From positions 64,192 to 128,191 of the forward strand of contig CAKKQB010000013.1 of assembly GCA_919901915.1 (NCBI GenBank): a DNA stretch of 64,000 nt, read 5' to 3'. Within the stretch, counting starts at the first letter, position 1, and every line of letters begins with the position of its first letter. Origin of the DNA: Omnitrophica bacterium GWA2_41_15. Lineage in GTDB: Bacteria; Omnitrophota; Gorgyraeia; Gygaellales; Profunditerraquicolaceae. This document shows, piece by piece, positions 1 to 53,710 of the stretch. Below the pieces are notes generated by a model that was not told the origin of the DNA, searched no databases, and worked only from the letters and a program-made list of their open reading frames with translations. A program made the position numbers and the translations under genes.

Positions 1-1933
1 CTTTCGCTTTTTCTCTTATCTGCTTGTTCCAGAAAAATCTTTTTTTGCTTAAAAGAGTTAGGTAAGGAGAGGCCTCTTTGAAACAAACTTCTTCTATAAG
101 AGACATGTTCTCTAAAAGCGCGTTATTTTCCTTAACAGAAAAAAGCAATTCAACCGCCTCTTTTCTTGCCCCCTCACTTTTAGACAAAGCTTCTAACGCC
201 TGCCTCTTCAACAAAGGTGTACCTTTCTCTAAGGAAAGAATCGTAAATTTTTCATCAATCGCGCTTAATTTCTGCATCGCCTTCAATACTTCTATCTTTA
301 TAAACTCATTAGAAAACGAAAAAATATTCTTAAGCGCTTCTATGGCCAAGGCCAAATCAACTGTTTTCAAGCCATCTATAATCCCTAGCATAAATCCTAC
401 ATCAGTATTCTTTTTCTCTAAATTCCCATAAAAAATGTCCTTATGCCCGGGAAAAAACTTAAAAAATAATTTCAAGGCATAAGCGCTAACCTTACCTTCA
501 TTAAATATTTTATCCAGATAAAATTCAACCCCCATAGAGGATTTTTCCAGGGTATCCGCGAAATACTCCAAGTCAGAAGACAGTGGTTCGGCCTCCCCTT
601 GCCGAAGCCGCAAGTCAGAGGACAGTGGTTCGGCCGGCTCCCAAAACAGATTTTCTATTATTTTTGTAACGCGCGTATCCAAGACATCAAGAAAACGGCT
701 TAAATACGGTTTTTGTTTTCTTCCGTCTTTCAAAGCGCCACACAGATATTTAAGATATTGATAATCCTTTACCTTAACTATCTCGGGGAGCTCTTGAGAA
801 ATTTTTTCTATAATCTGCTCGGCCTTTTCAGAGTTTTCCTCTTGCGCGAACATACTCAACAAAATCAAACGGTAATTTTTTTGCAAAATTCCACGGTCAA
901 AAGAAAAAGCTCCCCCGGAAGAAATATCATTAAGCATAGCGCTAATCCTGCCGCGATAAACCTCTGAATCAAGAGAGGCATTGGGTTGGGCCAATAATTC
1001 CTGTATCTTTTTTATTGCTTTAGGATTCTGTTTTAAAGAATCTTTATTGAATGAATCTGTTAAAAAAAGTGAAGCGATGCCCTCCTGCATTTTTTCATCC
1101 GTGAAACGGGAAAATAACTCCAAACTTAAATTATCAAAATTTTCATCTTTTAATATTCCGCTCCAAAGCGCTCCCGCGAAGTCCTCTTCGCTCAAATGTC
1201 TAAAGAATACCTTAATTTTATCTATATTTTCTCCCCCTAAAACATCTTTATGCCTTAAAACTGACCTGAACATCGCGCTAATACAGGTTCTAAATCTTTC
1301 CTGATCATGTTTTTTAAGATAATCTAAAAAGGCCGTCACGCTCTGCCTTAGCTCTTCGTCATTAAGTAAATCATCCGCCTTAAACCTTAGAGCTATCTTT
1401 TCAAAATTATCCGCGAACACGCTTACCTTCTCTGAATCGCCCGAGCCTATTGCCTGAGCGACTAAATATTCCCATACATCCCTAATTTCTTCTCCCTCAT
1501 CTTTTAAAAATTGCGAATAATCCAACTCTTCAATAGATACATGCGCGATATTCTCCTTTTTTAGAATGCCCCCAAGGCCGCCTTGTTTAAAAACTTCTCG
1601 AACAGGTAAAGCTAAGCCGGCAAGAAAATATCTCAATTCCTCAACCGTAGCGCCTTGTTCTATCTGAATACTTCTCAATTTACGACGGTGAAAAATCATG
1701 GCTAATTCAACGCAAAACCCCATTTTCTGCCAATACCTTGAGTCCAAAAACAAAGAATTGGGAGTAACGCCTATTTTTATCGGGTTTAAAAAACCAAACA
1801 CCAAATCAGCGTTTTTTTTAAATTTTTCCACGGAATCTATAAAATAGGGGTGTGTTCCAGAATAAGAGGAGGCATTGTTTATAGCTATACGCAGGCTTTT
1901 AAGAAAATCATTTAAGACTTCTTCTTTATTCAT
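1..1933 (-). CDS. hypothetical protein, 3'-partial (>=644 aa, continues past left window edge)
   Basis: Read by hand on minus strand: ATG at 1931-1933 (MNKEEVLNDFLKSLRIAINNASSYSGTHPYF...) stays open to position 1; missing from ORF track only because no in-window stop; no domain recognised; carries an in-frame 42-bp tandem duplication (AEPLSSDLRLRQGE/AEPLSSDL). Confidence 0.6.
   Translation of the reverse strand, partial: MNKEEVLNDFLKSLRIAINNASSYSGTHPYFIDSVEKFKKNADLVFGFLNPIKIGVTPNSLFLDSRYWQKMGFCVELAMIFHRRKLRSIQIEQGATVEELRYFLAGLALPVREVFKQGGLGGILKKENIAHVSIEELDYSQFLKDEGEEIRDVWEYLVAQAIGSGDSEKVSVFADNFEKIALRFKADDLLNDEELRQSVTAFLDYLKKHDQERFRTCISAMFRSVLRHKDVLGGENIDKIKVFFRHLSEEDFAGALWSGILKDENFDNLSLELFSRFTDEKMQEGIASLFLTDSFNKDSLKQNPKAIKKIQELLAQPNASLDSEVYRGRISAMLNDISSGGAFSFDRGILQKNYRLILLSMFAQEENSEKAEQIIEKISQELPEIVKVKDYQYLKYLCGALKDGRKQKPYLSRFLDVLDTRVTKIIENLFWEPAEPLSSDLRLRQGEAEPLSSDLEYFADTLEKSSMGVEFYLDKIFNEGKVSAYALKLFFKFFPGHKDIFYGNLEKKNTDVGFMLGIIDGLKTVDLALAIEALKNIFSFSNEFIKIEVLKAMQKLSAIDEKFTILSLEKGTPLLKRQALEALSKSEGARKEAVELLFSVKENNALLENMSLIEEVCFKEASPYLTLLSKKRFFWNKQIREKAK
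571..646. repeat. in-frame 42-bp tandem duplication inside gene A derived from a ~45-bp mini palindromic element
   Basis: caagtcagaRgacagtggttcggcc x2; homologous to 9768-9813 in opposite orientation. Confidence 0.7.
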
Positions 1934-2401: not shown

Positions 2402-4114
2402 CTAAGCCTCCTCTGTTACCCGCAATACTTCATCTGGCGTCGTAGAGCCATTCTTGATTTTCTCTATGCCATCTTCGTATATGGTACGCGAACCTAAGAT
2501 TATCGCCTTTTTCTGAATTTCACGGCCAGGCATTTTAGCAACAACCATACTCTTAAGTTCATCATTCATCACCAGAAACTCAAAAATACCGATACGGCCA
2601 AAATATCCAGTATTCTTACAATTCTGACAGCCCTTTCCGCGATAAAATTCACCCTTATAATCTAATTTTAAATCACGCAACATCTCGTCAGAAGGCATAT
2701 AGCTTTCCTTACATTTAGGACAAATTACCCGCACTAACCTCTGCGCTAATATTCCAGTAACAGAAGTGGCAATTAAAAATGGCTCAATGCCCATATCCAA
2801 GAGCCGGGTCAGAGAACTAACGGCATCATTGGTATGCAGTGTAGAAAGCACTAAGTGCCCTGTTAAAGATGCCTGGATAGCAATCTCGGCAGTCTCTTTG
2901 TCGCGAATTTCACCTACCATTATTATATCCGGGTCCTGGCGCAAAATATTACGCAACCCATTAGCAAAAGTCAGGCCCGCAAGGGGATTAACCTGCGTTT
3001 GACGAATAAGAGGAACATCATATTCTACGGGATCCTCAATGGTAATGATATTTTTTTCTATGCTATTTATTACAGATAAGGCGGCGTAGAGGGTCGTGGT
3101 CTTACCTGAGCCAGTCGGCCCGGTAACTAAAATTATTCCATTGGGCCTTGTGATTAACTTTTCAAAGCCCTTTAGGTCTTTATCGGAAAAACCCAATTGG
3201 CTTAAACCTAAAATCACGTTGGATTTATCCAAAATTCTTAAAACTATATTTTCTCCGTTAATCGTAGGAAAAGAAGAAACCCTTAAATCAAGATTCTTGT
3301 TTTCCATCTTAATCTGAATCCGGCCATCTTGGGGCCTGCGCGTCTCAGCTATATCCATTCTCGCCATCACCTTAACACGCGAAACAAAAGCGCCCTGAAG
3401 GTATTTGGGAAGCTGCTGGGCCTCATGCAAAATTCCGTCAATGCGATAACGAATAAGTATCTTGCCTTGGGCTGGTTCAATATGGATATCGCTGGCGCGG
3501 TCTTTAACTGCCTGCATAATAATTAAATTTACTAATTTTATAACCGGCGCCTCCTCGGTAATATCAACTAATCCCTCGGGAACAAGCTTCTCTGCGCCTG
3601 TTGAAAAAGGAGACAAACCTTTAGGGCCTTTCGCCTGAACAGATAATTTTTCTTCGGTTAAATCTTCTATTAATTTTTTGACATCCCCTGCTGCCCCATA
3701 ATACTGGTCAATCATTTTTTCGATTGCCCCGGGTGAAGCCAGCATCGGCTCAATTACGTCTATACCGCTACTTTTTCTTATTTCATCTAACACCATAATG
3801 TTATGAGGATCTGCCATTGCCACTGTAAGAGAATTACCGATTTTAAATAAAGGCATGGCCTTGAATCTTTTTGCCATTGCCTCCGGAATAAATTTTATTA
3901 TCGCGGAATCAATCAAATAATCCGCCAAATCTATAAATGGAACACCTATTGAACCAGCCCATGCCTTCAAAATATCCACTTCGGAAATAAATCCCAGGCG
4001 TTCCAGGGCCTTCTCTAAAAGAAGACCTGTTTTTGCCGCCTCTTCCTGACCCTGGACAAGCTGCTCTCGCGTAATTATGCCTTCCTGAATAAGAAAATCA
4101 ACGCTTGCGCTCAT
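2402..4114 (-). CDS. pilB: type IV pilus assembly ATPase PilB (GspE family)
   Basis: 570 aa; N-terminal T2SSE_N-like region, Walker A GPTGSGKTTT, Asp/His boxes, tetracysteine CPKC...CQNC zinc motif. Confidence 0.9.
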   Translation of the reverse strand: MSASVDFLIQEGIITREQLVQGQEEAAKTGLLLEKALERLGFISEVDILKAWAGSIGVPFIDLADYLIDSAIIKFIPEAMAKRFKAMPLFKIGNSLTVAMADPHNIMVLDEIRKSSGIDVIEPMLASPGAIEKMIDQYYGAAGDVKKLIEDLTEEKLSVQAKGPKGLSPFSTGAEKLVPEGLVDITEEAPVIKLVNLIIMQAVKDRASDIHIEPAQGKILIRYRIDGILHEAQQLPKYLQGAFVSRVKVMARMDIAETRRPQDGRIQIKMENKNLDLRVSSFPTINGENIVLRILDKSNVILGLSQLGFSDKDLKGFEKLITRPNGIILVTGPTGSGKTTTLYAALSVINSIEKNIITIEDPVEYDVPLIRQTQVNPLAGLTFANGLRNILRQDPDIIMVGEIRDKETAEIAIQASLTGHLVLSTLHTNDAVSSLTRLLDMGIEPFLIATSVTGILAQRLVRVICPKCKESYMPSDEMLRDLKLDYKGEFYRGKGCQNCKNTGYFGRIGIFEFLVMNDELKSMVVAKMPGREIQKKAIILGSRTIYEDGIEKIKNGSTTPDEVLRVTEEA

Positions 4115-4132
4115 AACTGATACTCCTTCATT

Positions 4133-6085
4133 TTAAAGACGCGAACGTACAAATTTTGAGATAATTTTTTTATCTTTAGTTTTTAAATTTATAAATTCAA
4201 GGCCCAGCTTATATTCTTTAACGCCAATTCCCGGTGCCTCTTCTATATATTTTATCCAGGCCACATCCGCCATAACACAAAAAGGCTTTACTTTAGGAAA
4301 TTTCAATTTAACCTGTATCCGGCTGTCTGTTTCTATCTTTCTCTTAGCTATAAAACAAATTCCGCCTTCAGAGATATCAATAGTTTGAGAAGATTCTATC
4401 TCTTCCCCGGGCAATAAAATCTCAATATCCGCTTTATAAAAAATCCTGCGAAAACGCCTCTTTTCTAAGCCAACGCGTATCTTCTTAATATTGATACTGC
4501 TTATAAGCCGCGAAGCAGGAAGAGATTGAGATTTAGAATCATACGGCAATACTCCTAAATTTATAAAAACATTCTCTAAATTCTGTGCCGCGAAATATTT
4601 TCTTATTCTATTCTTGAGTAAATCGCAAAATTTTACGGCCACCTCTTCTCCTGCCTTTAAAAGCAGGATACCAATTTCTCCTTCTTTATAATTCTCTAAG
4701 CATACCCGCGGGGAACAGGCAGATATATCCCCCGCGCCTAATTTCTCAAATGTTTCCTCAAAAAATACCTTTAAATTACCAAGTAACCCTATGGAGTCAA
4801 TATTGAATTCTTTCTGGAATTGCGCGTAATTAACAATCAGCAAATTAACCAAATAAACAGGCAGGCTTTCTTCCGCTAAATTATTAATCTTATCCCTGAT
4901 ATCCTTGCTTAATATTTTATCCGTATAAAATCTGGGCAGGGTAAAATAAAATTTACTGCCCACGCCCAATTCAGATTCAACCCAAATCTCTCCACCGTGT
5001 TTTTCTATCAATTCTTTCGTGATAAAAAGCCCCAACCCGACTCCTTTTCTCTTTACTTGAGATTCACTGGCAAGCTGAATAAACTTATTAAATATTTTAG
5101 GTAAATCTTGTTTGGCTATCCCAATACCCGTGTCCATAACAACTACTCTAACCTTATCCTCCAAAATTCTGACTTCAATCCTAATCTTTCCGTTTTGTTC
5201 GGTAAACTTTATAGCGTTATTAACTAAGTTCGCGATAACCTGATTTATTCTTCCGGCATCTATAAATATATTTATTTCTTGGCCCTGAGGCAAATCATAC
5301 TCCAAACCTACGCCCTTTTGCTCTGCCAATTTTTTAAAAAACGCGAAAGAATCCATTAGTAAATCGCTAAGATTAACTAACGAATAACGCATTTTAATCT
5401 TACCTCTTTCAAATCTAGAAATATCAAGCAGTTCTTCTATTATATCATTTAGGCGCGCTATATTATTTTTTGCCTTCGTAAGTATTTCTTTCTGCTTAGA
5501 AATTAATGGGCCCGCAACCTCATCGATAAGAAGCATTACCGCGTCTTTAATAATCGCTAGTGGTGTCCTAATCTCATGAGAAACAACAGAAACAAATTCA
5601 GACTTCATTCTATTTAATTCTTCCAATCCTTCTATTTTTTTGCAAATCAACGCCTTTTCTTCTCTCAAGCGCTCAAATTGCATGCGCTGGGTAATATCCC
5701 TGGTAATACCAATAAGGCCGACAATCTTACCTTTATTGTCGTATCTGGGTATCTTGGTTGTTGACGCGTAATTATCAACGCCGTCTACCCGTGTAGCCCT
5801 TTCAATTTTATCAATTATAGGCTTACCGGTCGTCATAACATGCAAATCATCCTTAGCCATTTCCCGCGCCCGTTCCCGGGGAAAAATATCAAAATCCGTT
5901 TTCCCAACTACCTCTTCGGGCTTAAGGCCCAAGCCCTTAGCATGGGTCTGATTAACCATAATCAGCCTCCCCCGGGTATCTTTAAAGTAAATAACATCCG
6001 GCACCATATCCATAAGATCGGAAAGAAGTTTATACTTATTCTCTAACTCTTTATATTTCTTTTGTAACTCTTTAAAATTATTCAT
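4133..6085 (-). CDS. PAS sensor histidine kinase with C-terminal PilZ (c-di-GMP binding) domain
   Basis: 650 aa; PAS (aa ~20-135), HisKA H-box SHEIRTPL, HATPase_c (N/G boxes), C-terminal RRFRRIFY...DISEGGICF PilZ signature (RxxxR + D/NxSxGG). Confidence 0.85.
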   Translation of the reverse strand: MNNFKELQKKYKELENKYKLLSDLMDMVPDVIYFKDTRGRLIMVNQTHAKGLGLKPEEVVGKTDFDIFPRERAREMAKDDLHVMTTGKPIIDKIERATRVDGVDNYASTTKIPRYDNKGKIVGLIGITRDITQRMQFERLREEKALICKKIEGLEELNRMKSEFVSVVSHEIRTPLAIIKDAVMLLIDEVAGPLISKQKEILTKAKNNIARLNDIIEELLDISRFERGKIKMRYSLVNLSDLLMDSFAFFKKLAEQKGVGLEYDLPQGQEINIFIDAGRINQVIANLVNNAIKFTEQNGKIRIEVRILEDKVRVVVMDTGIGIAKQDLPKIFNKFIQLASESQVKRKGVGLGLFITKELIEKHGGEIWVESELGVGSKFYFTLPRFYTDKILSKDIRDKINNLAEESLPVYLVNLLIVNYAQFQKEFNIDSIGLLGNLKVFFEETFEKLGAGDISACSPRVCLENYKEGEIGILLLKAGEEVAVKFCDLLKNRIRKYFAAQNLENVFINLGVLPYDSKSQSLPASRLISSINIKKIRVGLEKRRFRRIFYKADIEILLPGEEIESSQTIDISEGGICFIAKRKIETDSRIQVKLKFPKVKPFCVMADVAWIKYIEEAPGIGVKEYKLGLEFINLKTKDKKIISKFVRSRL

Positions 6086-6104
6086 AAAAAAGATTTTTCC
6101 GTAA

Positions 6105-6255
6105 ATAGGGACTGCCCGACTGGACCCCGGCTTCCGCCGGGGTGACGAGCTAACATTGTCATTCCCTCGGTCAGCCTCATTACCATCGTCGTCATTCCGG
6201 CGAAAGCCGGAATCCAGAAAGAAATCTTGTCCACCTCGTAGGCGCGCGCTTATCT
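6105..6255. repeat. composite of family A-type hairpins between REC gene and HK gene
   Basis: ctggaccccggcttccgccggggtgac and gtcattccggcgaaagccggaatccag in opposite orientation. Confidence 0.65.
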
Positions 6256-6298
6256 TTACTCGTATTCACCTACCAGGTGGACTCTGGTTCCCTAAATG

Positions 6299-6670
6299 CT
6301 AACCAAGTAACTGGCGAATCTTCTCTAATAACACGTGGGCATCAAAAGGTTTAGTAATATAAACGTCGGCGCGCACATCTTTAGCTATTTCTTTATCAGA
6401 TTCATCAGCGCGCGCGGTAAAAATAATAATTGGAATATTTTTATATTTCTCGTCAAACTTTAGCAACCGGCATACTTTATAACCGTCCATTTTAGGAAGC
6501 ATTAAATCTAATATAATAAGGTCTGGATTCTCTTTTTTCGCTTTCTCTAAACCCTCCAGGCCATCCCCCGCGGAAATAACCTCATAATCATTAGCCTCTA
6601 ACCGCAGGCTGACAGTTTCAACCAAATCACTCTCATCTTCAATAATCAATATTCTCTTTTTACTCATCAC
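6299..6670 (-). CDS. stand-alone response-regulator receiver (CheY-like)
   Basis: 123 aa; ILIIEDE...DLIILDLMLPKMDG...K conserved REC residues; no output domain. Confidence 0.85.
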   Translation of the reverse strand: MMSKKRILIIEDESDLVETVSLRLEANDYEVISAGDGLEGLEKAKKENPDLIILDLMLPKMDGYKVCRLLKFDEKYKNIPIIIFTARADESDKEIAKDVRADVYITKPFDAHVLLEKIRQLLG

Positions 6671-6691
6671 ACGATACCTCCCTTAAAAATT

Positions 6692-6768
6692 TGGTGACGG
6701 CGGGTGGATTTGGACCACCGACTTAACGGGTATGAGCCGTTTGCTCTACCAGACTGAGCTACGCCGCC
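6692..6768 (-). tRNA. tRNA with CAT anticodon (elongator Met or Ile2/lysidine type; not initiator)
   Basis: Minus-strand GGCGGCGTAGCTCAGTCTGGTAGAGCAAACGGCTCATACCCGTTAAGTCGGTGGTCCAAATCCACCCGCCGTCACCA folds as cloverleaf; anticodon loop CTCATAC; anticodon stem lacks the 3 G-C of initiators; encoded CCA; T-loop reads TCCAAAT (C at position 55 unusual). Confidence 0.75.
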
Positions 6769-6775
6769 TTAATCC

Positions 6776-7264
6776 TTACTGTTCCAAGATAAGTTCAATA
6801 TTTCTAGAGCCGTTATTCAAAATAACCCTGTCAAGCTTTATATCAACTACAGTATGGACGCCAATCTTATCTCCCACTTTTACAATATTATCATTTATTA
6901 TCGCCAAAGAAGCTTTTTTATCACAAATTATACCCATAAGTTTTAAGCCAATTATTTCTTCGTCGCAAAAATAAGTCTTACCGCTAAAAGGGCATCTTCC
7001 CTGAACATGTCCTTTGTCCGGCGGCGATTGCCTCGCGGTCCGTGGCTCCTCCGAGAAGCGGGTAAAACTAGGAACCTGCTTGTCTAACGGGTTAATTATC
7101 GCGGATACACCAGGATTTGTTCCGTTAAGAGGTTCTTTTCTCATGGAAGGAACGGCATTGGTCAAGGACCTTTTCTTAATCACCTTTAGGGTATTTCCCC
7201 AGGCAAAAATAAAAACCAGAATTAACACTCCTGTAATAATTATTTTTACGCGTTCCTTATCCAT
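6776..7264 (-). CDS. PilP-like pilus assembly lipoprotein/periplasmic protein
   Basis: 162 aa; N-terminal TM helix; C-terminal GLKLMGII...INDNIVKVGDKIGVHTVVDIKLDRVILNNG matches PilP/GspC HR-domain pattern; position after pilO. Confidence 0.55.
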   Translation of the reverse strand: MDKERVKIIITGVLILVFIFAWGNTLKVIKKRSLTNAVPSMRKEPLNGTNPGVSAIINPLDKQVPSFTRFSEEPRTARQSPPDKGHVQGRCPFSGKTYFCDEEIIGLKLMGIICDKKASLAIINDNIVKVGDKIGVHTVVDIKLDRVILNNGSRNIELILEQ

Positions 7265-7430
7265 ATTGTCACAAAAAGAGTATTATAGTTTCCACTGAAA
7301 AAGTGGAAACTATATGATTACAACGATTAAAAAATAGATTACAGTGATTAATGTCCGACGAGAAAAAATCTCCGTAATCTTTTTAAAATCTCCGTAATCA
7401 AGTTACTGCTGGGTTTTTCAGCAGTAACTA

Positions 7431-7991
7431 TTATGGAACCTTTTTAAACAAATAAACAGAAATTTGCAAAACAGCTTCTAAACAAATTTGACCTTCCCCC
7501 GCGCCCTGAATCTTAAGCTCTCTTATCCTTACAAGAAACACGGGATTATTCCTTAAAATATCTAAATATCTATTTATGGCTATAAATTCACCTGCCAAAT
7601 TAAAAGTTATAGGCAACTCTTCTATATCATAACCCGAAACAGGAGTTTCTATTGGGCGCCTGCTCGAACTGCTAAGATTTTTAATTTCGATATTTAAATT
7701 CTTTGCTGTCTCGGATAGATTATTTATTACTATTTCTTCCTTATTAAGCAGTTGGCTTTCAATTTTATTCAGTTGCGCTCCCATACCATTTAATGCTTCC
7801 CCTACATCCTTGCCCTGAAGAATACCTTTTATTTCTAAAATCTGGCTATCAGCATCCTTCAATTGATTCTTTATCAAAGCAAACCTCCGTATCTGGGGAG
7901 AATAAACAAACTGCCAGAACAAAAACAAAAACACCGCCGCGGCTACAGCAAAATAAATAATTTTCCTCTGTTCTTTGTTTAACACTATCAT
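7431..7991 (-). CDS. PilO-like inner-membrane pilus assembly protein
   Basis: 186 aa; single N-terminal TM (IIYFAVAAAVFLFLFWQFVY) then coiled coil; gene order pilMN-pilO-pilP. Confidence 0.6.
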   Translation of the reverse strand: MIVLNKEQRKIIYFAVAAAVFLFLFWQFVYSPQIRRFALIKNQLKDADSQILEIKGILQGKDVGEALNGMGAQLNKIESQLLNKEEIVINNLSETAKNLNIEIKNLSSSSRRPIETPVSGYDIEELPITFNLAGEFIAINRYLDILRNNPVFLVRIRELKIQGAGEGQICLEAVLQISVYLFKKVP

Positions 7992-8012
7992 AGCAATATT
8001 AATTTAACACGA

Positions 8013-8218
8013 ATTCTCATGGGGCTGTTGCGAAATGCCATTTTTCGTCATTCCGGCGAAAACCGGAATCCAGAACTCTTTGATTTTAATAGACTTATGG
8101 ATACCGGCGACCGAGGGCGAAATGACCGAGGAAGTGTCGGAGCCTAACTGGGCTCGACCTTTCGCCAATATGACGATTTTAATGTATTTTGCAACAGCCC
8201 CCTCATGGATTTATCCGT
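8013..8218. mobile_element. MITE family A (~200 bp) with ~20-bp TIRs CATGGGGCTGTTGCGAAAT and internal hairpin GTCATTCCGGCGAAARCCGGAATCCAG
   Basis: near-identical copy at 51988-52171; TIRs read directly; spurious ORF 8035-8259. Confidence 0.8.
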
Positions 8219-8255
8219 GTTTATCCGTGTTCTTTTATCCGTGTCAATCCGTGTT
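8207..8255 (-). promoter_or_regulatory. cluster of 4 direct TTATCCGTGT (minus: ACACGGATAA) motifs with 10-14-bp phasing, just after pilMN stop / upstream of pilO
   Basis: ttatccgtgtttatccgtgttcttttatccgtgtcaatccgtgtt. Confidence 0.6.
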
Positions 8256-16071: not shown

Positions 16072-17286
16072 CTACCCCGGCCTAAACAATTTAATCAAAT
16101 TCCACATCGGCAGGAATATAGCCAAAGCCATAATTAAAACCATAATCCCTAAAACAAAAATTAATATAGGCTCAATATAAGTAGTCAAATTCCTGATCAT
16201 ATAAGCTGTTTCCCTGTCATAATAATCCGCCACATTTATAAGCAATTCGCCCATCCTGCCTGTTTGTTCTCCGGTTGAGACCATCTGAACTACAACAATA
16301 GGAAACAAATTGCTTACCTTCATCGGTTCAGACATACCCTTGCCCTGGTTAACATTTTCCTTGATATGCCCGATTGCCCGCGCGACAATAATATTTCCGG
16401 ACGTGTTTGCCGTTAAATCCAACACCTCTAAAATAGACACGCCGCTTTCCATTAATATGGCGGTAACACGCGCGAAACGCGACATAATAAGCAAGGTTAT
16501 CAACGGCCCCAAAACCGGAATCTTTAATTTAAGATTATCAAAAATAGGCCTGCCTATTTTTGAATTAATGAAACTCCTTAAACCAAAAATACCTGCTCCT
16601 GTCAACAAAATAAATAAATACCAAAATTTCTTGATACTAATACTAAGGGCGATTAAAATCCTTGTCGGAAGAGGCAATAACGTATTAAACTGGCTGTAAA
16701 TAACCGCAAAACGCGGAATGACAAAGGTAATCACAATAAGAAAAGCTACACATAAAGCAGAAAATGCCAACATCGGATAACGCGTGGCCGCGTTTATGCG
16801 GCTGGAAGTATCAATCTCCTGCTCTAATAACCCCGAGAGCCTTTCCAAAACACCCACTATATTACCGCTGGTCTCCGCGACCTTAATCATCGCGACGTAG
16901 ATACCATTAAAAATTTGGGATTGCTCTTTTAAGCTATCAGAGAAACTTAAGCCTCCTTTAATATTGAGGGCAATTTTTTCAATAACAGATTTAAAATATC
17001 TATTTTTTGTTTGTTGTGCCAGCGTCTCTAAGTTTGATAACAAAGGAAGCCCCGCCTTTTGCATAGAATAAAGCTGGCGCGTAAAAACATCCAACTCTTG
17101 AAGCCCCACGCGCTTAAACCGCTTAAGAATCTTTCCAACGCCCAAATCACGCGCTTCAATAATGGATATGGGAATATAGCCCATATCCGCCAGTTCTTTC
17201 GCGGCAAAATCGCTGGTTTCAGCGACAATCGTGCCTATAGCAAGCTTAGAAAATTTATCACGCGCCTTATATTTAAAATTAGCCAT
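16072..17286 (-). CDS. pilC: type IV pilus platform protein PilC (GspF family)
   Basis: Start at [10 protein letters not shown]; two GspF repeats, 3 TM; start ATG (17286) overlaps carB stop (ATGGCTAA). Confidence 0.85.
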
Positions 17287-18916
17287 ACGTAGAATAATAA
17301 TAAGGTGTAGCGGCATGGAACTCCGCGGCACAGGTATCTACAAGTTTATACACGGGAAAAATATTAAATGATTCGCGTAATTTATACATGTCTTCTTCAT
17401 TTTTACCTAGTAAACGACTCAACTGCCTATCGCTAAAACCAAATTCCTTCGCTTGAGTAAGGAGCTCTTTTGTAATATTATTCTTGTTTTTTATAATCTC
17501 TTTCTCTAAATCAATTATTTCTTTTATATTTGCCAAAAACCAACGGTCAATCTTGGTTAATTCATTAATTTTTTCTATATCCACCCCTATCCTTAAGGCA
17601 TCGCCAATATAAAAGATCCTTTCAGCGTTAGGTATTCTTAACTTTTGCTCAATCTTTTCCCACGCGCCATTATCCAATTCGCCTAAACTTTCTAAACCAT
17701 ACTTTTTAATCTCCAGAGAACGCAGGCCCTTCTGCAAAGCCTCCTTAAAAGTCCTCCCTATCGCCATTACCTCACCAACGGACTTCATAGAAACTGTAAG
17801 CGTGGGATCAGCGGATGGAAATTTTTCAAAAGTAAAGCGGGGAATTTTTACCACGCAATAATCTATTGCCGGTTCAAAACAAGCGGGCGTTTCTTTGGTA
17901 ATATCATTAGGGATCTCATCTAAGGTATAACCCACGGCTAACTTCGCGGCAATTTTCGCGATGGGAAAACCAGTCGCCTTAGACGCCAGAGCAGAGCTTC
18001 TTGAAACCCTTGGATTCATCTCAATAATAACCATGCGCCCGGTTTCAGGATTAATCGCGAATTGAATATTAGAGCCTCCTGTACTAACGCCTATCTCTCT
18101 TATGCAGGCAATTGAGGCGTCGCGCATTTTTTGATATTCTTTATCAGTTAACGTTTGAATAGGCGCGACAGTAATACTATCTCCTGTATGTACGCCCATC
18201 GGATCAAAATTTTCAATGGAACAAACTATTACCACATTATCCATTGAATCCCGCATTACCTCTAATTCAAACTCCTTCCAGCCAATTACCGATTCCTCAA
18301 TAAGAATTTCGCTGTTCATGCTGGACTCAAGGCCATACTTTGCCAAATCCTTAAATTCTTCTATATTATAAGCAACACTTCCGCCTGTTCCGCCTAATGT
18401 AAAACTCGGCCGAATAATCACCGGAAAACCTATCTCTTTAACCGCCTCTATGGCCTCATTTAAATTATAGGCCTTTTTACTTTTAGGCAGGTCCAGGCCA
18501 ATTTTTTGCATCGCCTTTTTAAAAAGCTGCCTGTCTTCGCCTTTTTTGATTGCCTTTATATCTACGCCAATGGTTTCTACCTTATATTTTTTAAGGATTC
18601 CTTTTTCCGCTAAATCTATAGATATATTTAAAGCGGTCTGCCCTCCCAATGTAGGCAATAACGCGTCCGGCCTTTCTCTGGCGATAATCTTTTCTATGAC
18701 CTCTACGGTCATTGGCTCAATATATGTCGCGTCTGCCATTTGAGGGTCGGTCATAATAGTAGCAGGATTTGAATTTATTAAAACTACTTTATAACCTTCC
18801 TGCCTTAAAACCTTGCAGGCTTGAGTTCCGGAATAATCAAATTCACAACCCTGGCTGATAATAATCGGGCCTGAACCAATAATTAGAATCTTCTTTATGT
18901 CAGTACGTTTAGGCAT
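17279..18916 (-). CDS. carB: carbamoyl-phosphate synthase large subunit, N-terminal half only (split carB)
   Basis: [35 protein letters not shown]...; ends ...[14 protein letters not shown] exactly at the boundary between the two homologous halves (cf. E. coli ...YMYSTYEEE...). Confidence 0.85.
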
Positions 18917-18922
18917 AATAAT

Positions 18923-19029
18923 TAGCGTAGAGCGTAGAGCGGATAGTAAAATTAGCATTTAGCGTAGAGCGTAGAGCGTTTAATAAAAGTCTTTTGCCTT
19001 TTCTCTACGCTCTACGCTATACGCTATCC
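18923..19029. repeat. heptamer-array palindromic repeat, family F (AGCGTAG/AGCGTAT/AGCGGAT units), between carA and carB
   Basis: tandem 7-bp units in inverted arrays around AT-rich spacers. Confidence 0.85.
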
Positions 19030-20102
19030 TTCATCATCTCTATAAATTTCCCAAATAGGTATTTCGTATCATGCGGACCAGGAGATGCCTCGGGATGAAA
19101 CTGAACAGAAAAAACAGGCAATTTCTTATGCCGCATTCCTTCCAGGGTATCGTCATTTAAATTTATATGCGTAAGCTCTATATCTTTCTTATCCAAAGAA
19201 TCTATGTCCACGCAAAAACCGTGATTTTGCGCTGTTATACAAACTTTTCCTGTCTTTAAGTCCTTAACCGGATGATTCGCGCCATGGTGGCCGAATTTAA
19301 GTTTATAGGTTTTACCGCCAAAAGCAAGCCCTAACATCTGATGGCCAAGGCAGATTCCGAATATCGGCAATTTACCAATTAAGCCTCTTGTTGTTTCTAC
19401 AACATATTTTACTGCTGATGGATCTCCCGGGCCGTTAGAAAGCAAAACCCCGTCAGGTTTAAGCTCTAAAATATCCTCTGCTCTTGTTTCAGCCGGCACA
19501 ACTACTGCTTCGCAATTATGCTCAACGAGCTCTCTTAAAATATTATATTTTACCCCGCAATCAATCACTACAACCTTATATTTAGCTTTCTTTAAACTAG
19601 GCCAGATATATTTTTTGGCACAACTTACCTCTTTAACTAAGTCTATTCCCGTCAGTCCCAATGACTTTTTTACTTTTTCCACTAAACTCTTTTCATCCAA
19701 ATCTCGCGTAGATAAAACTGCCTTCATCGCGCCTTTTTCTCTGACATGCAAGGTTAGCGCTCTTGTATCTATCCCTTCAATACCCATGATATTATTTTCT
19801 TCTAAGTATTCTCCTAATGACTGCTCCTTGCGCCAATTACTGGCAATTTTACTATATTCTTTTACCGCGAATCCTTCCAGAAACAACCCTGCTGACTCTG
19901 TATCAAGCCTGTTTACGCCATAATTACCAATTAAAGGATACGTCATCGTAACAATCTGGCCTTTATAAGAAGGGTCTGTCAAGATCTCCTGATACCCTGC
20001 CATACTGGTATTAAAAACTATCTCGCCATAGCTTTCGCCAGAAGCGCCAAAAGATTTACCCCTAAATATCATTCCGTCTTCTAATACAAGAATTGCTTCC
20101 AT
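19017..20102 (-). CDS. carA: carbamoyl-phosphate synthase small subunit (glutamine amidotransferase)
   Basis: 361 aa; CarA N-domain + class I GATase (ICLGHQ, catalytic His/Glu). Confidence 0.9.
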   Translation of the reverse strand: MEAILVLEDGMIFRGKSFGASGESYGEIVFNTSMAGYQEILTDPSYKGQIVTMTYPLIGNYGVNRLDTESAGLFLEGFAVKEYSKIASNWRKEQSLGEYLEENNIMGIEGIDTRALTLHVREKGAMKAVLSTRDLDEKSLVEKVKKSLGLTGIDLVKEVSCAKKYIWPSLKKAKYKVVVIDCGVKYNILRELVEHNCEAVVVPAETRAEDILELKPDGVLLSNGPGDPSAVKYVVETTRGLIGKLPIFGICLGHQMLGLAFGGKTYKLKFGHHGANHPVKDLKTGKVCITAQNHGFCVDIDSLDKKDIELTHINLNDDTLEGMRHKKLPVFSVQFHPEASPGPHDTKYLFGKFIEMMKDSV

Positions 20103-20107
20103 ATTTT

Positions 20108-20136
20108 TAGCGTATAGCGGATAGCGTAGAGCGTAT
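20108..20136. repeat. family F heptamer array (single arm, 4 units) between purF and carA
   Basis: agcgtat agcggat agcgtag agcgtat. Confidence 0.7.
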
Positions 20137-20157: not shown

Positions 20158-21525
20158 TTACTCCAATATGTACTTTGATATTTTTTTCGGCGGCTCTATG
20201 AGGTATTTTCCATCAAAACAAGCAGTGCAAAATTTATCTTTTGGTAAAGGCATAGCTTCCAGCATCCCTTCTTTGCTTAAATATTCAAGGCTATCCGCGC
20301 CGATAAAATCACGTATCCAATCAATGCTATGCTTAGCGGCAATAAGTTCTTTCTTGGTGGGAAAATCAATGCCATAAAAACAAGGGCTGATAAGCGGCGG
20401 GCAGCTTACCCGCATATGCACCTCTTTTGCTCCTGCCTCACGAATAGTTTTAATCCTGACCTTTGAGGTTGTGCCGCGCACAATTGAATCCTCAATAACC
20501 ACAACCTTTTTATCTTTTAAAATCGGCTTCACCGGATTAAGTTTTACCTTCACCCGGAAATCCCTCTGGGCCTGATCTGGCTGAATAAAAGTCCTGCCAA
20601 TATAATGATTACGCATCATTCCCATTTCATAAGAAATGCCTAAATGCTGCGCGTAACCTAACGCGGCGCAAGTACCGGAATCAGGGACAGGCATAACAAT
20701 ATCAGCCTTAACAGGAAATTCCCGCGCAAGCTGTTGGCCTAATTTTTTTCTTGTCTGATAAACATTCTCTTCAAAAATATTGCTGTCCGGCCGCGCGAAA
20801 TAAATGTATTCAAAAATACAAAACCCACAATCTTTTTTTATAACCGGCCTAATCGAATCTATTTTATCCTTTTGAATAAAGACAGTCTCCCCCGGCAAGA
20901 TATCCCGGACATATTGAGCGCCGATTAAATCAAATACACAGGTTTCACTGGCTAGGACATACGCCGCGCCTAATTTTCCTAAACAAAGCGGACGAAATCC
21001 TAAAGGGTCTCGTGAACCAATTAGAATATTATTAAACATTAAAACTAAGGAATACGCGCCTTTTAACTGCGCAAGCGCCCACGGGATTGCCTCTTGATAA
21101 TCTCTCTTAGGGCTATGGGCGATAAGATGCGCGATCACCTCTGAATCCATAGTCGTCTGAAACAACGCGCCCTTATCTTCTAATTGCCGCTGTAATTGAA
21201 ACGCGTTGACAATATTTCCATTATGGGCTATAGCAATATGACAGTTTTTAGTTTTTACATAAAACGGCTGGGCATTTTTTAAGGTACTGCTTCCTGTTGT
21301 GGAATAGCGCACATGACCAATCGCTAAATCGCCTTTGAGGCTAGAAATAGCTTTCTTATCAAATACCTCACTAACCAGGCCAAGGGCTTTATGGATATGG
21401 GGCTTCGAGCCATTGTGGGTAACTATGCCGGCAGATTCTTCGCCACGATGCTGAAGCGCGTATAATCCAAGGTAAGTAATTTTTGCGGCTTCTTTATGCG
21501 GATAAATCCCAAATATTCCACACAT
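20158..21525 (-). CDS. purF: amidophosphoribosyltransferase
   Basis: MCGIFGIY N-terminal nucleophile, PRTase domain, C-terminal Cys cluster. Confidence 0.9.
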   Translation of the reverse strand: MCGIFGIYPHKEAAKITYLGLYALQHRGEESAGIVTHNGSKPHIHKALGLVSEVFDKKAISSLKGDLAIGHVRYSTTGSSTLKNAQPFYVKTKNCHIAIAHNGNIVNAFQLQRQLEDKGALFQTTMDSEVIAHLIAHSPKRDYQEAIPWALAQLKGAYSLVLMFNNILIGSRDPLGFRPLCLGKLGAAYVLASETCVFDLIGAQYVRDILPGETVFIQKDKIDSIRPVIKKDCGFCIFEYIYFARPDSNIFEENVYQTRKKLGQQLAREFPVKADIVMPVPDSGTCAALGYAQHLGISYEMGMMRNHYIGRTFIQPDQAQRDFRVKVKLNPVKPILKDKKVVVIEDSIVRGTTSKVRIKTIREAGAKEVHMRVSCPPLISPCFYGIDFPTKKELIAAKHSIDWIRDFIGADSLEYLSKEGMLEAMPLPKDKFCTACFDGKYLIEPPKKISKYILE

Positions 21526-21898: not shown

Positions 21899-22276
21899 TC
21901 AGGCAGTTTCGATAGCTCTTGTAGGCCGAGTAATATGAACTTTGTCTTTTTTTACAATTACCATGGCATTTTCAAAGGAAGCAAACATCTTTTTTTCTAC
22001 TAAGGGGTTCAAGATGTTAAGAAGGGCATCGGGAGCGAAAGGGTTAATTCTAAAAAATACAATTCCTTTATGGGTTCCTAAGGGGAATCTATAAAGACTG
22101 GTGAAATCATTATCTAAGGTAAGAATAATTCTATTTTCTTTTCTGCAAAACGAAACTATCTCTTCATCACTAGCCTTTTGCAATCCCACATCTAAGGCTT
22201 TAATAATATCGTAGCCATTCTTACGCAAGAGTTCTACGCCACAGCTAAAGAAACAATGGTCAGCAAATAACTTCAT
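21899..22276 (-). CDS. DUF5615/Mut7-C-like PIN-fold putative toxin
   Basis: 125 aa; pairs with upstream DUF433 gene, abutting (stop/start adjacent). Confidence 0.55.
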   Translation of the reverse strand: MKLFADHCFFSCGVELLRKNGYDIIKALDVGLQKASDEEIVSFCRKENRIILTLDNDFTSLYRFPLGTHKGIVFFRINPFAPDALLNILNPLVEKKMFASFENAMVIVKKDKVHITRPTRAIETA

Positions 22277-22522
22277 TTAGTTAACCTCTTGGACAAAAAC
22301 TTCTTCGTTTTTAAAGATACAGGCAGCGTAATGAATGCAGGCTTTAATATCTTCGGGGGTAATATCAGGATAGCATTGTTTAATAATTTCCTCTATAGCC
22401 AGCCCTTGTTCAATAAGTTCCAGAACCATATAAACAGGAATTCTGGTTTCTTTAATACAGGGTTTTCCAAAGCAGATGTTGGGGTTAATAGAAATTCTAT
22501 CTTCCAGAGAATTATTTGCCAT
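22277..22522 (-). CDS. DUF433 family putative antitoxin
   Basis: Start moved to MANNSLEDR (strong AGGAGG 8 nt upstream at 22531-22536). Confidence 0.55.
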   Translation of the reverse strand: MANNSLEDRISINPNICFGKPCIKETRIPVYMVLELIEQGLAIEEIIKQCYPDITPEDIKACIHYAACIFKNEEVFVQEVN

Positions 22523-22869
22523 TGTTTCCACCTCCTGGCTGAAATATAACACGAACTTATATAAGCGTCAAGTTTTATCTCACAAAAATCAGGCCAGCCC
22601 ATATAAGTATAGATGGAAATTAGGGGAAATTAGGGACAGCGACCGTTTTTCTGTAATAAAATAGTCGCTGACCCTATTTTCCGCAATTTCGCAATTTCGA
22701 AATTATTATGAATAATATTGCCCCAAAGCAACCGCTTTCTTTTTTACCCCTTTTGGTATAGAAATCCCATAATTTATAGTGTATACTTTATTACAAAAAT
22801 ACATATCAGCTATCAGCTGTTGATGAACCGCGGTTCGTGGGATTATTATGATTAACAAAAATAACAACA

Positions 22870-31527: not shown

Positions 31528-33186
<1,659 letters not shown>

Positions 33187-33322: not shown

Positions 33323-34750
33323 TTAGATAATCGGCAAATTATTTTCTTGCGTCAAATACTTATCCATAAAATCAGCGCAGCGCCTTCCTTCTGAAATGGC
33401 CCAAACAATTAAAGACTGACCGCGACGCATATCTCCACAAGAAAAAACGCCTCGCCGAGAAGTCAGAAAACTTTCTTTTAACAAGTTGTTTCTCTCTGGG
33501 GGCAAAAAACCCAAGGCTAAAATTACCAAATCCCCATCGAGTTCAAATTCGCTTCCGGAAATTTCTTCCATTACAGAATGGCCTGATTCATTCTTCTTGA
33601 ATTCAACCCGGCAGCAAGAAAGCTTTTTTACGTGTCCATTCTCACCAATAAACTTTTTTGTGGAAACCGACCAATCGCGAATTCCAGCTTCTTGGTGGCT
33701 GGTAGTAGCCTTAAGAAGCAGCGGATACTTTGGCCAGGGATAATCACGCGTGCGGGATTCAGCCGGCCGCGGCATAATTTCAATCTGGGTGACGCTCTTC
33801 GCGCCTTGCCTATGCGCGACGCCGATACAATCCGCGCCGGTATCCCCGCCGCCAATCACCACAACTTTTTTATCTTTAGCATCAATAAGTTCATCCGAAG
33901 AAAATTTTACGCCTTGCGCTCTTTTATTTGATTGAATCAAATAATCCATCGCGAAATATATGCCTTTTAATTCCCTTCCTTCTATCTTTTCAGCCGCAGG
34001 CTGATCCGCCTTCGGCGGAAGATCCCGAGGAATACGAGAACCGCAAGCTAAACAAATCGCGTCAAACTCTTTTCTTGAATAAGGCGCCTTTAAATCCATA
34101 CCCACATTTATGCCCGGCATAAATTTTATTCCTTCCTTTTTCAAAATTTCTAAGCGCCGATCCAAAATCCTTTTTTCTAATTTAAAATCCGGGATCCCAT
34201 AGCGAAGAATACCGCCAATTTTATCATCCCGCTCAAACACCACTACATTATGCCCCGCCTTGTTTAATTGATCCGCGCAAGATAAGCCCGCAGGGCCAGA
34301 ACCAATAATTGCCACTTTTTTTCCGGTGCGCCTCTTAGGCGGATTAGGCTTAATAAATCCATGTTTAAACGCGTACTCAATTATTGCCAACTCATTCTCT
34401 CTTGTAGTTACCGCCTCATCATTAATCTCTAAAACACAGGCATATTCGCAAAGAGCCGGACAAATTCTGCCGGTAATCTCCGGAAAATTATTAGTAGCCG
34501 AAAGCAGCAAATAAGCCTTTTCCCACTTGCCGCGAAATAACAAATCATTCCATTCCGGGATATAATTACTAATGGGACAGCCCCAAAGACAAAACGGCGT
34601 CCCACAATCCATGCAGCGCGAAGCCTGCTCCATAGAATGTTCGACTGCAGGTAATATGCCCACTTCGCGATAATCTTGGACGCGTTCACAAACAGGCCTG
34701 CATTTAGATACTTGCCTTTTAACTTTTAAGAAACCTTTAATATCACCCAT
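33323..34750 (-). CDS. gltD: glutamate synthase small (beta) subunit
   Basis: 475 aa; two Cys clusters, GSGPAGL FAD and NADPH Rossmann motifs; overlaps gltB by 8 nt. Confidence 0.9.
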   Translation of the reverse strand: MGDIKGFLKVKRQVSKCRPVCERVQDYREVGILPAVEHSMEQASRCMDCGTPFCLWGCPISNYIPEWNDLLFRGKWEKAYLLLSATNNFPEITGRICPALCEYACVLEINDEAVTTRENELAIIEYAFKHGFIKPNPPKRRTGKKVAIIGSGPAGLSCADQLNKAGHNVVVFERDDKIGGILRYGIPDFKLEKRILDRRLEILKKEGIKFMPGINVGMDLKAPYSRKEFDAICLACGSRIPRDLPPKADQPAAEKIEGRELKGIYFAMDYLIQSNKRAQGVKFSSDELIDAKDKKVVVIGGGDTGADCIGVAHRQGAKSVTQIEIMPRPAESRTRDYPWPKYPLLLKATTSHQEAGIRDWSVSTKKFIGENGHVKKLSCCRVEFKKNESGHSVMEEISGSEFELDGDLVILALGFLPPERNNLLKESFLTSRRGVFSCGDMRRGQSLIVWAISEGRRCADFMDKYLTQENNLPII

Positions 34751-39386: not shown

Positions 39387-39391
39387 ATTTT

Positions 39392-39558
39392 TAGCGTATA
39401 GCGTATAGCGTAGAGCGTAGAGCGTATAGCGTATAGCGTAGAACGTAGAGCGTAGAGCGGATAGCGGATAGTAAAAATCTATGTTTTAACTATATGTTAT
39501 CCGCTATTCCTACACGCTTTCTTTCCTATCCGCTAAACGCTATACGCTCTACGCTAAT
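39392..39558. repeat. largest family F locus (11-unit left arm + degenerate right arm) between glnN and gltB
   Basis: direct reading of tandem heptamers. Confidence 0.85.
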
Positions 39559-44635: not shown

Positions 44636-44661
44636 CCTCTTATTTTTAATGTTTTAGTATT

Positions 44662-44741
44662 TAGCGGATAGCGTATAGCGTATATATAGGTTTTACTATC
44701 CGCTATACGCTCTACGCTATACGCTATACGCTTGATATTTT
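44662..44741. repeat. family F palindrome between nfnB and nfnA
   Basis: agcggat agcgtat agcgtat / atccgct atacgct ctacgct atacgct atacgct. Confidence 0.85.
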
Positions 44742-45569
44742 AAGATTACAGATATGCTTTTCTTTATCTAAATAAACACTGTTCCTCTTTGTCAATTCAT
44801 CCCAATTTACTTGAGTTCCGTCAAATTCCGGGCCATCAACGCAAGCAAATTTCGTCTTACCTGCCACAGTTACACGGCAACAGCCGCACATTCCAGTAGC
44901 ATCTACCATCAAAGGATTCAAAGAAACAATGGTTTTAACTTTAAAATCGCTAGCAACCTCGCAAACTCTTCTCATCATCGGTATCGGGCCGACTGCGTAA
45001 ATTAGCGAATAGCGGATAGCGGATAGTGAATAGCTTAATACCTCCTGCAAAATATCAGTAACAAAGCCTTTCCTGCCGCAAGAACCGTCATCAGTGGTTA
45101 TATAAAGCTCATCGCAAAACACCTTTAGCTCCTGCTCCAAAATCAATAAATCATTGTTTCTTGCGCCCAGTATAGTAGTAGTATGGTTTCCCGCTTCTTT
45201 CAAAGCCTTGGCAACCGGATAAATCTCCGCAATTCCTACGCCTCCGCCTACAAGAATTAAATTTCCAAAATTTTTAATCTCAGTAGCATGCCCCAGGGGC
45301 CCGGCCAAAGCGTATAATGAATCACCAACCTCCATCTTGCCCAGCAACTTAGTAGTTAAGCCAACCTCTTGAAAGATCAAGGTAATTGTGCCTATGTCAG
45401 AATTTTTATCTACTATAGTTAGAGGTATCCTTTCGCCTTCCTCGCATACCATAAGAACAACAAATTGGCCCGGTCTTACTTTCCTGGCAATAAGCGGGCT
45501 TAAGATTTCAAAGCGCTTAATTGTTACGTCTTGCGTTTGTGCTAAAATTTCTTTTTTGATTATCCGCAT
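44724..45569 (-). CDS. nfnA: NfnA/SudB (PyrK-like FAD/[2Fe-2S] subunit); in-frame heptamer-repeat insertion
   Basis: 281 aa; C-terminal CGCC...C 2Fe-2S; segment LSYSLSAIRYSLI encoded by repeat 45003-45036. Confidence 0.75.
   Translation of the reverse strand: MRIIKKEILAQTQDVTIKRFEILSPLIARKVRPGQFVVLMVCEEGERIPLTIVDKNSDIGTITLIFQEVGLTTKLLGKMEVGDSLYALAGPLGHATEIKNFGNLILVGGGVGIAEIYPVAKALKEAGNHTTTILGARNNDLLILEQELKVFCDELYITTDDGSCGRKGFVTDILQEVLSYSLSAIRYSLIYAVGPIPMMRRVCEVASDFKVKTIVSLNPLMVDATGMCGCCRVTVAGKTKFACVDGPEFDGTQVNWDELTKRNSVYLDKEKHICNLKISSV
45003..45036. repeat. family F single arm inserted in frame in nfnA
   Basis: agcgaat agcggat agcggat agtgaat. Confidence 0.75.
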
Positions 45570-47650: not shown

Positions 47651-47718
47651 GCGTTTAGCGGATAGCGTTTAGCGTATAGTTTTTTTTATCCGCTATACGC
47701 TCTACGCTATACGCTATT
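47651..47718. repeat. family F palindrome between lrp and aminotransferase
   Basis: arms around T8 loop. Confidence 0.85.
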
Positions 47719-53644: not shown

Positions 53645-53700
53645 TAGCGCGGATAGCGTTTAATTTTTTCTATACGCTATACGCTCTACGCTATACGCTA
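53645..53700. repeat. family F palindrome between nrdJ and apgM
   Basis: agcgcggat agcgttt ... atacgct atacgct ctacgct atacgct. Confidence 0.85.
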
Positions 53701-53710
53701 AAACTTTTAT

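Follow-up and report, generated by a model that had tools for sequence, protein, structure and literature searches.

A carbamoyl-phosphate synthetase gene that appears naturally split in an Omnitrophota lineage, and its lineage-specific junction with a type IV pilus-like cluster

Split carB genes, in which the large subunit of carbamoyl-phosphate synthetase (CPSase) is encoded in two pieces, have long been described as a curiosity in textbooks, with Aquifex and Methanocaldococcus as the known cases, and are cited in debates on the evolution of the internally duplicated CPSase. The 64,000-nucleotide stretch of Omnitrophica bacterium GWA2_41_15 analysed here in its entirety (contig CAKKQB010000013.1; hereafter the window) carries on its minus strand, directly downstream of carA, a gene for the N-terminal half of CarB (carB-N), whose stop codon overlaps the start codon of pilC, the first gene of a type IV pilus-like cluster (Table 1). 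Is carB naturally split in this organism, as the original prediction made for this locus proposed, or is the gene a remnant cut by the arrival of the pilus genes, or an error of assembly, and does the junction with pilC carry any meaning? Judged by the sequences of the gene and its relatives, carB is naturally split in this Omnitrophota lineage. We hold it highly probable, as an overall reading, that carB-N encodes a functional CPS.A-type subunit with a separate C-terminal half (C-half), and that the junction with pilC is secondary.

The minus-strand open frame runs over 17279..18958, which makes 559 amino acids (aa) when counted from its first ATG. The ATG at 18916 opens the sequence MPKRTDIKK..., the same methionine is the start in all homologues, and a motif that also precedes the ATGs of carA and gltB is found 5 nucleotides (nt) upstream of it. 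Since the homologues begin at this methionine and the motif lies at this distance, ATG 18916 is most likely the real start of carB-N, giving a predicted product of 545 aa. The ATG at 18958 was also considered and rejected, as the homologues begin with MPKR and the 14 extra codons come from a repeat element. The N-half gene of the original prediction is therefore real, although its 546 residues become 545 once the stop codon is left out of the count.

Pfam recognises CPSase_L_D1, CPSase_L_D2 and CPSase_L_D3 (PF25596, PF02786 and PF02787) in this product, that is, the preATP-grasp, ATP-grasp and oligomerisation domains, and detects in it neither a second ATP-grasp half nor an MGS domain. Residues 1-544 align end to end with residues 1-547 of Escherichia coli CarB (734 bits), and the paralogous match of carB-N to the second half of the E. 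coli protein begins only at residue 556. The predicted polypeptide, which terminates in ...YYYSTYG*, stops in the linker that would join the oligomerisation domain to a second synthetase domain, so that the locus encodes the N-terminal half only and ends where a fused CarB continues, in agreement with the first description of the gene. The domain boundary of E. coli CarB itself is located around residues 553/554. Nine ATP-site residues of E. coli CarB, known from the Thoden/Holden structures (R129, R169, E215, H243, Q285, E299, N301, R303 and R306), are identical in the alignment. In comparison with E. coli CarAB (fused CarB of 1073 aa; PDB 1BXR, 1JDB), the window shows the same carA-carB order and conserved ATP-site residues, but its gene is devoid of the second synthetase and allosteric domains. 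The carA-carB-N pairing is also kept in the relatives wherever the available locus reaches far enough upstream.

The split is not a peculiarity of this genome. Of the 120 best homologues, some 60 measure 543-565 aa and share 81-85% identity with carB-N; the contigs that carry them are as long as 403 kb, and the named members are Omnitrophota. The fused CarBs among these 120 are only 64-75% identical. This homologue listing seems to under-represent full-length CarB, and its length distribution should not be taken as biological: none of the approximately 60 fused CarB matches listed exceeds 954 aa, many are annotated as 'partial', and CarBs of approximately 1070-1120 aa are present in genome loci. 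In species-representative genomes, the stop codon falls 0-13 residues past the YSTY motif in loci L004-L013 (Omnitrophota, 76-86% identity) and in L019-L021, L026 and L032 (72-73% identity; labelled as various or unclassified bacteria), and at all the other loci checked CarB runs on past YSTY into the second half. The same stop region is shared by at least 20 relatives from independent assemblies and species, almost all of them labelled Omnitrophota, and dozens of metagenome proteins of 543-565 aa end likewise. In our neighbour-joining (NJ) tree, which has no support values, the split N-half sequences form one main clade. The closest match in the scan of genome contigs is L004, with 86% identity.

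These observations bear directly on the two explanations that would deprive the split of biological meaning. If the pilus insertion had cut a fused carB, the N-half would be a decaying remnant, and indeed the breakpoint of the inserted block is located within the last carB-N codons with no C-half after it. Nevertheless, relatives without the pilus insertion end at the same place (DK*, DKK* or E*), the gene is under purifying selection (ratio of nonsynonymous to synonymous substitution rates, dN/dS, of 0.074 against L004 and 0.043 against L002), all its domains and ATP-site residues are intact, and L004 retains both carB-N and pilC intact, at 86% and 78% identity, respectively. A truncated pseudogene is contradicted by this evidence and is very improbable. 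Even less credit can be given to a spurious stop or a chimeric join, which might be suspected because the source is a metagenome assembly, and the original prediction had itself allowed for an error stop at 17279. The identical carB-N protein is found on three contigs (one of them ENA ERZ1292638 NODE_67, of 95 kb, the longest being of 133.6 kb), its stop is that of the relatives listed above, the ATGGCTAA junction with pilC is also present in L004, which belongs to a different whole-genome shotgun (WGS) project, and Logan assemblies made from separate runs again contain PilB and other genes of the contig. Therefore, with the protein repeated on three contigs, the stop conserved, the dN/dS low and the ATP-site residues intact, both a sequencing-error stop and a decaying remnant can be excluded for practical purposes.

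A naturally split gene calls for a second half, and the relatives provide it. In L010 (Omnitrophica RIFCSPLOWO2_01_FULL_45_10), the gene order is pyrG-carA-carB-N-orf84-carB-C-purF, and carB-C has its own ATG. Used as a query, this C-half retrieved about 90 stand-alone proteins of 514-565 aa composed of preATP-grasp and ATP-grasp (D1+D2) and MGS-like domains; the metagenome matches listed for a C-half query were mostly fused CarBs of other phyla, L091 alone being informative. The distance from carB-N to carB-C is 0.34 kb in L010 (occupied by orf84), 1.3 kb in L084 (yjbQ and one open reading frame, ORF), 2.0 kb in L089 (three ORFs), 3.4 kb in L179, L180 and L182 (GH3, dus, holin and orf92), 4.3 kb in L091 and 6.7 kb in L171 (yajQ, dus, fic, DUF1016, yjbQ, holin and others). 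From L010 to L171 this gap widens from 0.34 to 6.7 kb over the relatives, gathering unrelated and partly mobile-looking genes (yjbQ, yajQ, dus, GH3, fic/RhuM, DUF1016 and a holin-like gene), and it looks like an insertion hot spot. Downstream, carB-C is followed by purF-guaA-purL in L084, L089, L171 and L179, and at least by purF in L010 and L091. Completely unlinked C-halves also exist, in L172 (purS-purQ-purL...carB-C) and in L173 (purC-sua5-queA-permease-carB-C-pyk).

We call type A the loci in which carB-N and carB-C are linked, and type B those in which VTT/DedA, beta-CASP or both come after carB-N, ahead of L27 and M48, with no C-half within 10 kb. Type-B loci are L002, L003, L005, L006, L008, L011 and L176. 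The N-half of the window clusters with L004 inside the type-B group, although the NJ tree without support values makes this placement indicative only. The purF gene comes after carB-C in type-A relatives, unlike in the window, where it is found upstream of carA. The assembly GCA_041643025.1 had appeared to combine L089, of type A, and L002, of type B, in one genome. This case was dropped, since the contig numbering and sizes make the assembly look metagenome-scale, and therefore no co-occurrence of the two loci is inferred.

The reading that we favour is as follows. carB-N would be a complete and functional CPS.A-type subunit, carrying the carboxyphosphate (first ATP-grasp) and oligomerisation domains and co-transcribed with carA. 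CarA, CarB-N and a separate C-half would together form a three-polypeptide, glutamine-dependent carbamoyl-phosphate synthetase, as has been demonstrated biochemically in Aquifex aeolicus, the CPS.B-type C-half being a protein of about 520 aa with preATP-grasp, ATP-grasp and MGS-like allosteric domains. The two halves would have been adjacent at first in the clade, intervening genes piling up between them until they became unlinked, and the window would belong to the subclade in which carB-C no longer comes after carB-N. The overlap with pilC would be a secondary event, produced when an 18.8-kb block was set between carB-N and VTT/DedA.

Several results weigh against this reading. A tblastn search of the whole window with the N-half, a paralogue of the C-half, returned only the self-match, no C-half was present in the 77 kb of the parent contig (NODE_67:1-77005), and the extensions of this contig contained no CPSase domains in the 7.6 kb past one end of the window and the 5.4 kb past the other. 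The original prediction was right that the C-half is not nearby, and the contig extensions hold no second carB half immediately outside the window, an arrangement that it had named as a refutation. In addition, six stand-alone C-half proteins, selected by source signature or by position in the tree, were traced (P0147, P0250, P0168, P0214, P0319 and P0180), and each belongs to a sample other than that of the window; when 30 protein clusters were expanded in search of a member present in both NCBI and ENA, only P0319 fitted. Six out of six crown-group C-halves with known context in the C-half tree are linked to a type-A N-half, so that there is no direct case of a type-B genome holding a C-half, and the trees are NJ reconstructions without support values.

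The same results invite another interpretation, namely that the type-B subclade lost the C-half and that CarA together with a CarB-N homodimer carries out all three steps in the absence of an MGS-like domain. The 10 kb around carB-N are free of a C-half in all type-B loci (L002, L003, L005, L006, L008, L011 and L176), as are the 77 kb read here, and every crown-group C-half traced sits with a type-A N-half. Biochemistry lends it some plausibility, as isolated Aquifex CPS.A and CPS.B can each perform both ATP-dependent partial reactions and the 41-kDa archaeal CPS of M. smithii functions as a homodimer (PMC6022934). Against this interpretation, the part of PMC6022934 that deals with the Aquifex enzyme reports the full glutamine-dependent reaction for the three-subunit mixture. 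Stand-alone C-halves are known from unlinked positions in related lineages (L172 and L173), and therefore unlinked does not mean lost. Moreover, type-B and type-A N-halves are 79-84% identical and share the same C-terminal end, with no sign of a functional shift seen between them, and the C-half contexts sampled form a small set. We consider the loss of the C-half unlikely; if it were true, the type-B enzymes would be minimal CPSases that lack the allosteric domain and still represent today the presumed ancestral state before the duplication. A functional CarB-N working with a partner encoded elsewhere remains our preferred reading, and most likely an unlinked C-half is present in another part of this genome.

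Fused proteins from the same phylum add a further stage to the history of the two halves. Fused Omnitrophota CarBs of 1087 aa (P0262, P0264 and P0261) have C-halves that are 92-95% identical to the stand-alone C-halves and fall in the same 90% cluster as P0150, and their N-halves are only 55-58% identical to those of the split clade. The discordance between the identities of the two halves suggests that in these proteins a stand-alone C-half was re-fused with a different N-half, or that the N-half of a fused protein was replaced by a different one. The split or fused state thus appears to be evolutionarily fluid in this clade, a conclusion that is better supported than the loss of the C-half in type B.

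How does this system compare with the split genes already known? In Methanocaldococcus jannaschii, the two parts of carB are MJ1378 and MJ1381, a few genes apart, which resembles the arrangement of the type-A relatives L010, L084, L089 and L179, although the system is archaeal and the window itself is of type B. The split genes of Aquifex are unlinked, and in type-B genomes, that of the window included, the two halves are likewise non-adjacent. The likeness to Aquifex extends to the two genes being cut between the homologous synthetase halves and to the separate glutaminase subunit. According to a passage of PMC6022934 (citing Ahuja 2001, J Biol Chem 276:45694), the large subunit of the Aquifex enzyme is encoded in two genes, and the enzyme is active as CPS.A + CPS.B + GLN. 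In contrast to Aquifex, the lineage studied here consists of mesophilic groundwater Omnitrophota with approximately 40% GC, and a graded series from adjacent to unlinked halves is found within one clade.

A split carB is of a kind already known, and what is added here is that a whole clade shares it within the Omnitrophota, a phylum that has received little study and for which our literature search found no description of a split carB. The clade keeps halves 0.3 kb apart, halves separated by 1-7 kb with foreign genes, unlinked halves and an apparent re-fusion with a different N-half, and such a series offers natural material for the study of gene fission, gene fusion and the co-evolution of subunits. 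There is also a practical side, as annotation pipelines name both halves 'carbamoyl-phosphate synthase large subunit', which may mislead calls of pathway completeness and counts of paralogues.

The second question raised by this locus concerns the junction with pilC. Read from the carB-N frame, the minus-strand junction is TAT GGC TAA, and the TAA overlaps the pilC ATG as first described, in an 8-nt overlap (ATGGCTAA). This ATG is the only conserved start of pilC: L004 has the identical ATGGCTAA junction, with no other in-frame ATG upstream of pilC, and its PilC is 78% identical to that of the window. Among the relatives compared, only the window and L004 share this junction. No terminator-like site was found between carB-N and pilC on the minus strand, and the 20 nt that precede the pilC ATG contain no Shine-Dalgarno (SD)-like motif. 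An internal promoter for pilC was considered and dropped, the sole minus-strand match inside carB-N scoring 9/12; promoter-like sites are about as numerous as in shuffled sequence (24, against 17.6 +/- 3.8). The configuration resembles that of pairs coupled by termination-reinitiation (same strand, overlapping frames, neither an SD-like motif nor a terminator in between), but it differs from typical coupled pairs in that the two genes have unrelated functions and have been joined only recently in evolution. Translation of pilC by ribosomes that terminate on carB-N and reinitiate is therefore plausible but would be incidental.

It could be argued that the coupling is meaningful and that the overlap makes the stoichiometry or regulation of PilC and of the pilus depend on the metabolism of carbamoyl phosphate, arginine or pyrimidines. 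The overlap itself, the lack of an SD-like motif before pilC and of a terminator-like site, and the conservation of the junction in L004 would all fit. However, the junction is limited to the window and its closest relative, and elsewhere carB-N lies equally close to its next neighbour, which may be VTT, beta-CASP, purF, pyrG, yjbQ or a gene of unknown function: from the carB-N stop to the next gene there are -4 nt to VTT (L002), -4 to pyrG (L012), 0 in L089, +1 to yjbQ (L084), +2 to beta-CASP (L005), +3 to VTT (L176) and +3 to purF (L009). Furthermore, overlaps occur at 9 of the 43 same-strand junctions of this contig (21%), SD-like motifs are found at only 22 of its 46 starts (24 being without), and a platform protein and a biosynthetic enzyme would have no known stoichiometry in common. 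A regulatory link of this kind is thus quite improbable. Since carB-N forms tight junctions in most relatives whatever gene comes next, its coupling to pilC is not special, and the original view of the carB-pilC pair as an odd operon junction does not hold for this clade: in most of the relatives examined, carB-N abuts the next gene at -4 to +3 nt. We read the overlap as the result of genes lying close together where a rearrangement broke the locus, rather than as a functional link between the synthesis of carbamoyl phosphate and the pilus.

The history of this breakpoint can be followed in P0010 (locus L176), the closest well-assembled relative, with 85% identity, on contigs named 'Hain_H51_02um' from ENA ERZ1292634, ERZ1292639 and ERZ1292641, accessions next to that of the window (ERZ1292638). 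Its gene order is GS-gltB-gltD-pyrG-carA-carB-N-VTT-beta-CASP-L27-M48-LpxB(-)-GFO(-)-ABC-rpsB-tsf. When these genes were mapped on the window and its contig extensions, they formed a collinear backbone with 60-85% aa identity, broken by two extra blocks. The first, of 18.8 kb, separates carB-N from VTT/DedA and contains the genes from pilC to pilB, a 76-aa NIL protein, unk651 and an HD-GYP gene; in L176 and L002, VTT directly follows carB-N. The second, of 11.4 kb, lies between pyrG (31546-33135) and carA and comprises a Glu_synthase-domain protein, the end of a MarR-family gene, an OEP-MFP-RND efflux system, a DUF433/DUF5615 pair and purF. Moreover, beta-CASP and M48 are missing from the backbone of the window compared with P0010, and in other relatives unk644 and the HD-GYP gene are found upstream of pyrG or carA. 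The rearrangement was therefore more complex than one simple insertion.

At the junction itself, the relatives end in ...YSTYDK* and the window and L004 in ...YSTYG*, which places the breakpoint within the final codon or two of carB-N; the 5' end of pilC therefore now supplies the final glycine codon and the stop. The overlap is thus an example of a rearrangement breakpoint recruiting the 5' end of a neighbour as a new stop codon. Together, the collinearity of L176 and L002 and the block found here between carB-N and VTT support the carB-N/pilC junction as a probable, lineage-specific insertion boundary, a possibility already raised for the pilus locus in the original prediction.

Table 1. Features of the window around carB-N and pilC (positions counted from the first letter of the window).
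Feature	Position	Strand	Evidence
carB-N (CPS.A-type), CarB N-terminal half, 545 aa plus stop	17279..18916	-	ORF/translation, Pfam, E. coli alignment, split homologues
8-nt overlap ATGGCTAA: last sense bases of carB-N and TAA (17281-17279), pilC ATG (17286-17284)	17279..17286	-	
pilC, 404 aa, platform protein of the type IV pilus (T2SSF family), opening the pilus cluster	16072..17286	-	PF00482, two stretches, 2.3e-51
Palindromic heptad element CGCT(A/C)T(A/C), filling the 100-nt carA/carB-N spacer and supplying the last carA codons	18922..19027		
carA, CPSase glutaminase (small) subunit, 361 aa, directly upstream of carB-N	19017..20102	-	PF00988 + PF00117
purF, amidophosphoribosyltransferase, upstream of carA	20158..21525	-	Pfam, synteny
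Rest of the type IV pilus-like cluster after pilC	2402..16057	-	Gene calls with Pfam, ORFs
81-aa ORF, next after pilC		-	
Two tandem pilin genes	15201-15617, 14737-15141	-	
PemK toxin	14123-14455	-	
TPR membrane protein	12476-13969	-	
Three pseudopilin-like ORFs	10130-12367	-	
PilM-containing protein, then two small ORFs	8256-9980 (PilM)	-	
Response regulator	6299-6670	-	
PAS/HisKA/PilZ kinase	4133-6085	-	
PilB ATPase	2402-4114	-	
unk651, homologue of the relatives' unk644, 651 aa, no Pfam match	5..1933	-	tblastn, 46% over 648 aa

The spacer between carA and carB-N is another feature in which the window differs from its relatives, as carA and carB-N overlap by 8 nt in L002 and L176, with no spacer. 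The element that fills it has inverted arms and folds into a hairpin with a free energy of -41.7 kcal/mol (z = -4.7). In the window there are 27 matches to the heptad CGCT(A/C)T(A/C) against 0.45 expected, and the elements are absent from the 180 relative loci. Apart from the spacer, tandem-heptad palindromes resembling repetitive extragenic palindromes (REP) or miniature inverted-repeat transposable elements (MITE) and ending in ...CGCTAA are located at 20107-20133, 37905-38012 and 39391-39557, and further heptad palindromes at 44661-44727, 45002-45021, 47655-47717 and 53682-53701. Their positions are immediately before the start codons of several genes, among them gltB, carA and carB-N. The element at 37905-38012 is inserted in frame in gltB (ORF 34743-39386), at approximately aa 459-494, adding about 26-36 residues between GATase_2 and the central domain (1547 aa, against 1524 aa in the L176 orthologue).

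The pilus-like cluster shows features of type IV pili and type II secretion systems (T2SS), namely T2SSF (PF00482), T2SSE (PF00437/MshEN), PilM (PF11104) and N_methyl pilins (PF07963). The unk644 homologue and the HD-GYP gene, the latter just outside the window, are found between this cluster and the VTT gene. Two toxin-antitoxin-like pairs accompany the blocks: PemK with a small ORF upstream, inside the pilus cluster, and DUF433/DUF5615 (21899-22552), in the block between pyrG and carA. The sensor kinase has PAS/HisKA domains with a C-terminal PilZ, and past pilB come NIL, the 651-aa protein and HD-GYP (L085 14260-15609); the PilZ kinase and its HD-GYP neighbour hint at a control of the pilus by cyclic di-GMP. 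Finally, the products of the two tandem pilin genes (14737-15617) are 98.5% identical and the genes are offset by 464 nt, which points to a very recent tandem duplication.

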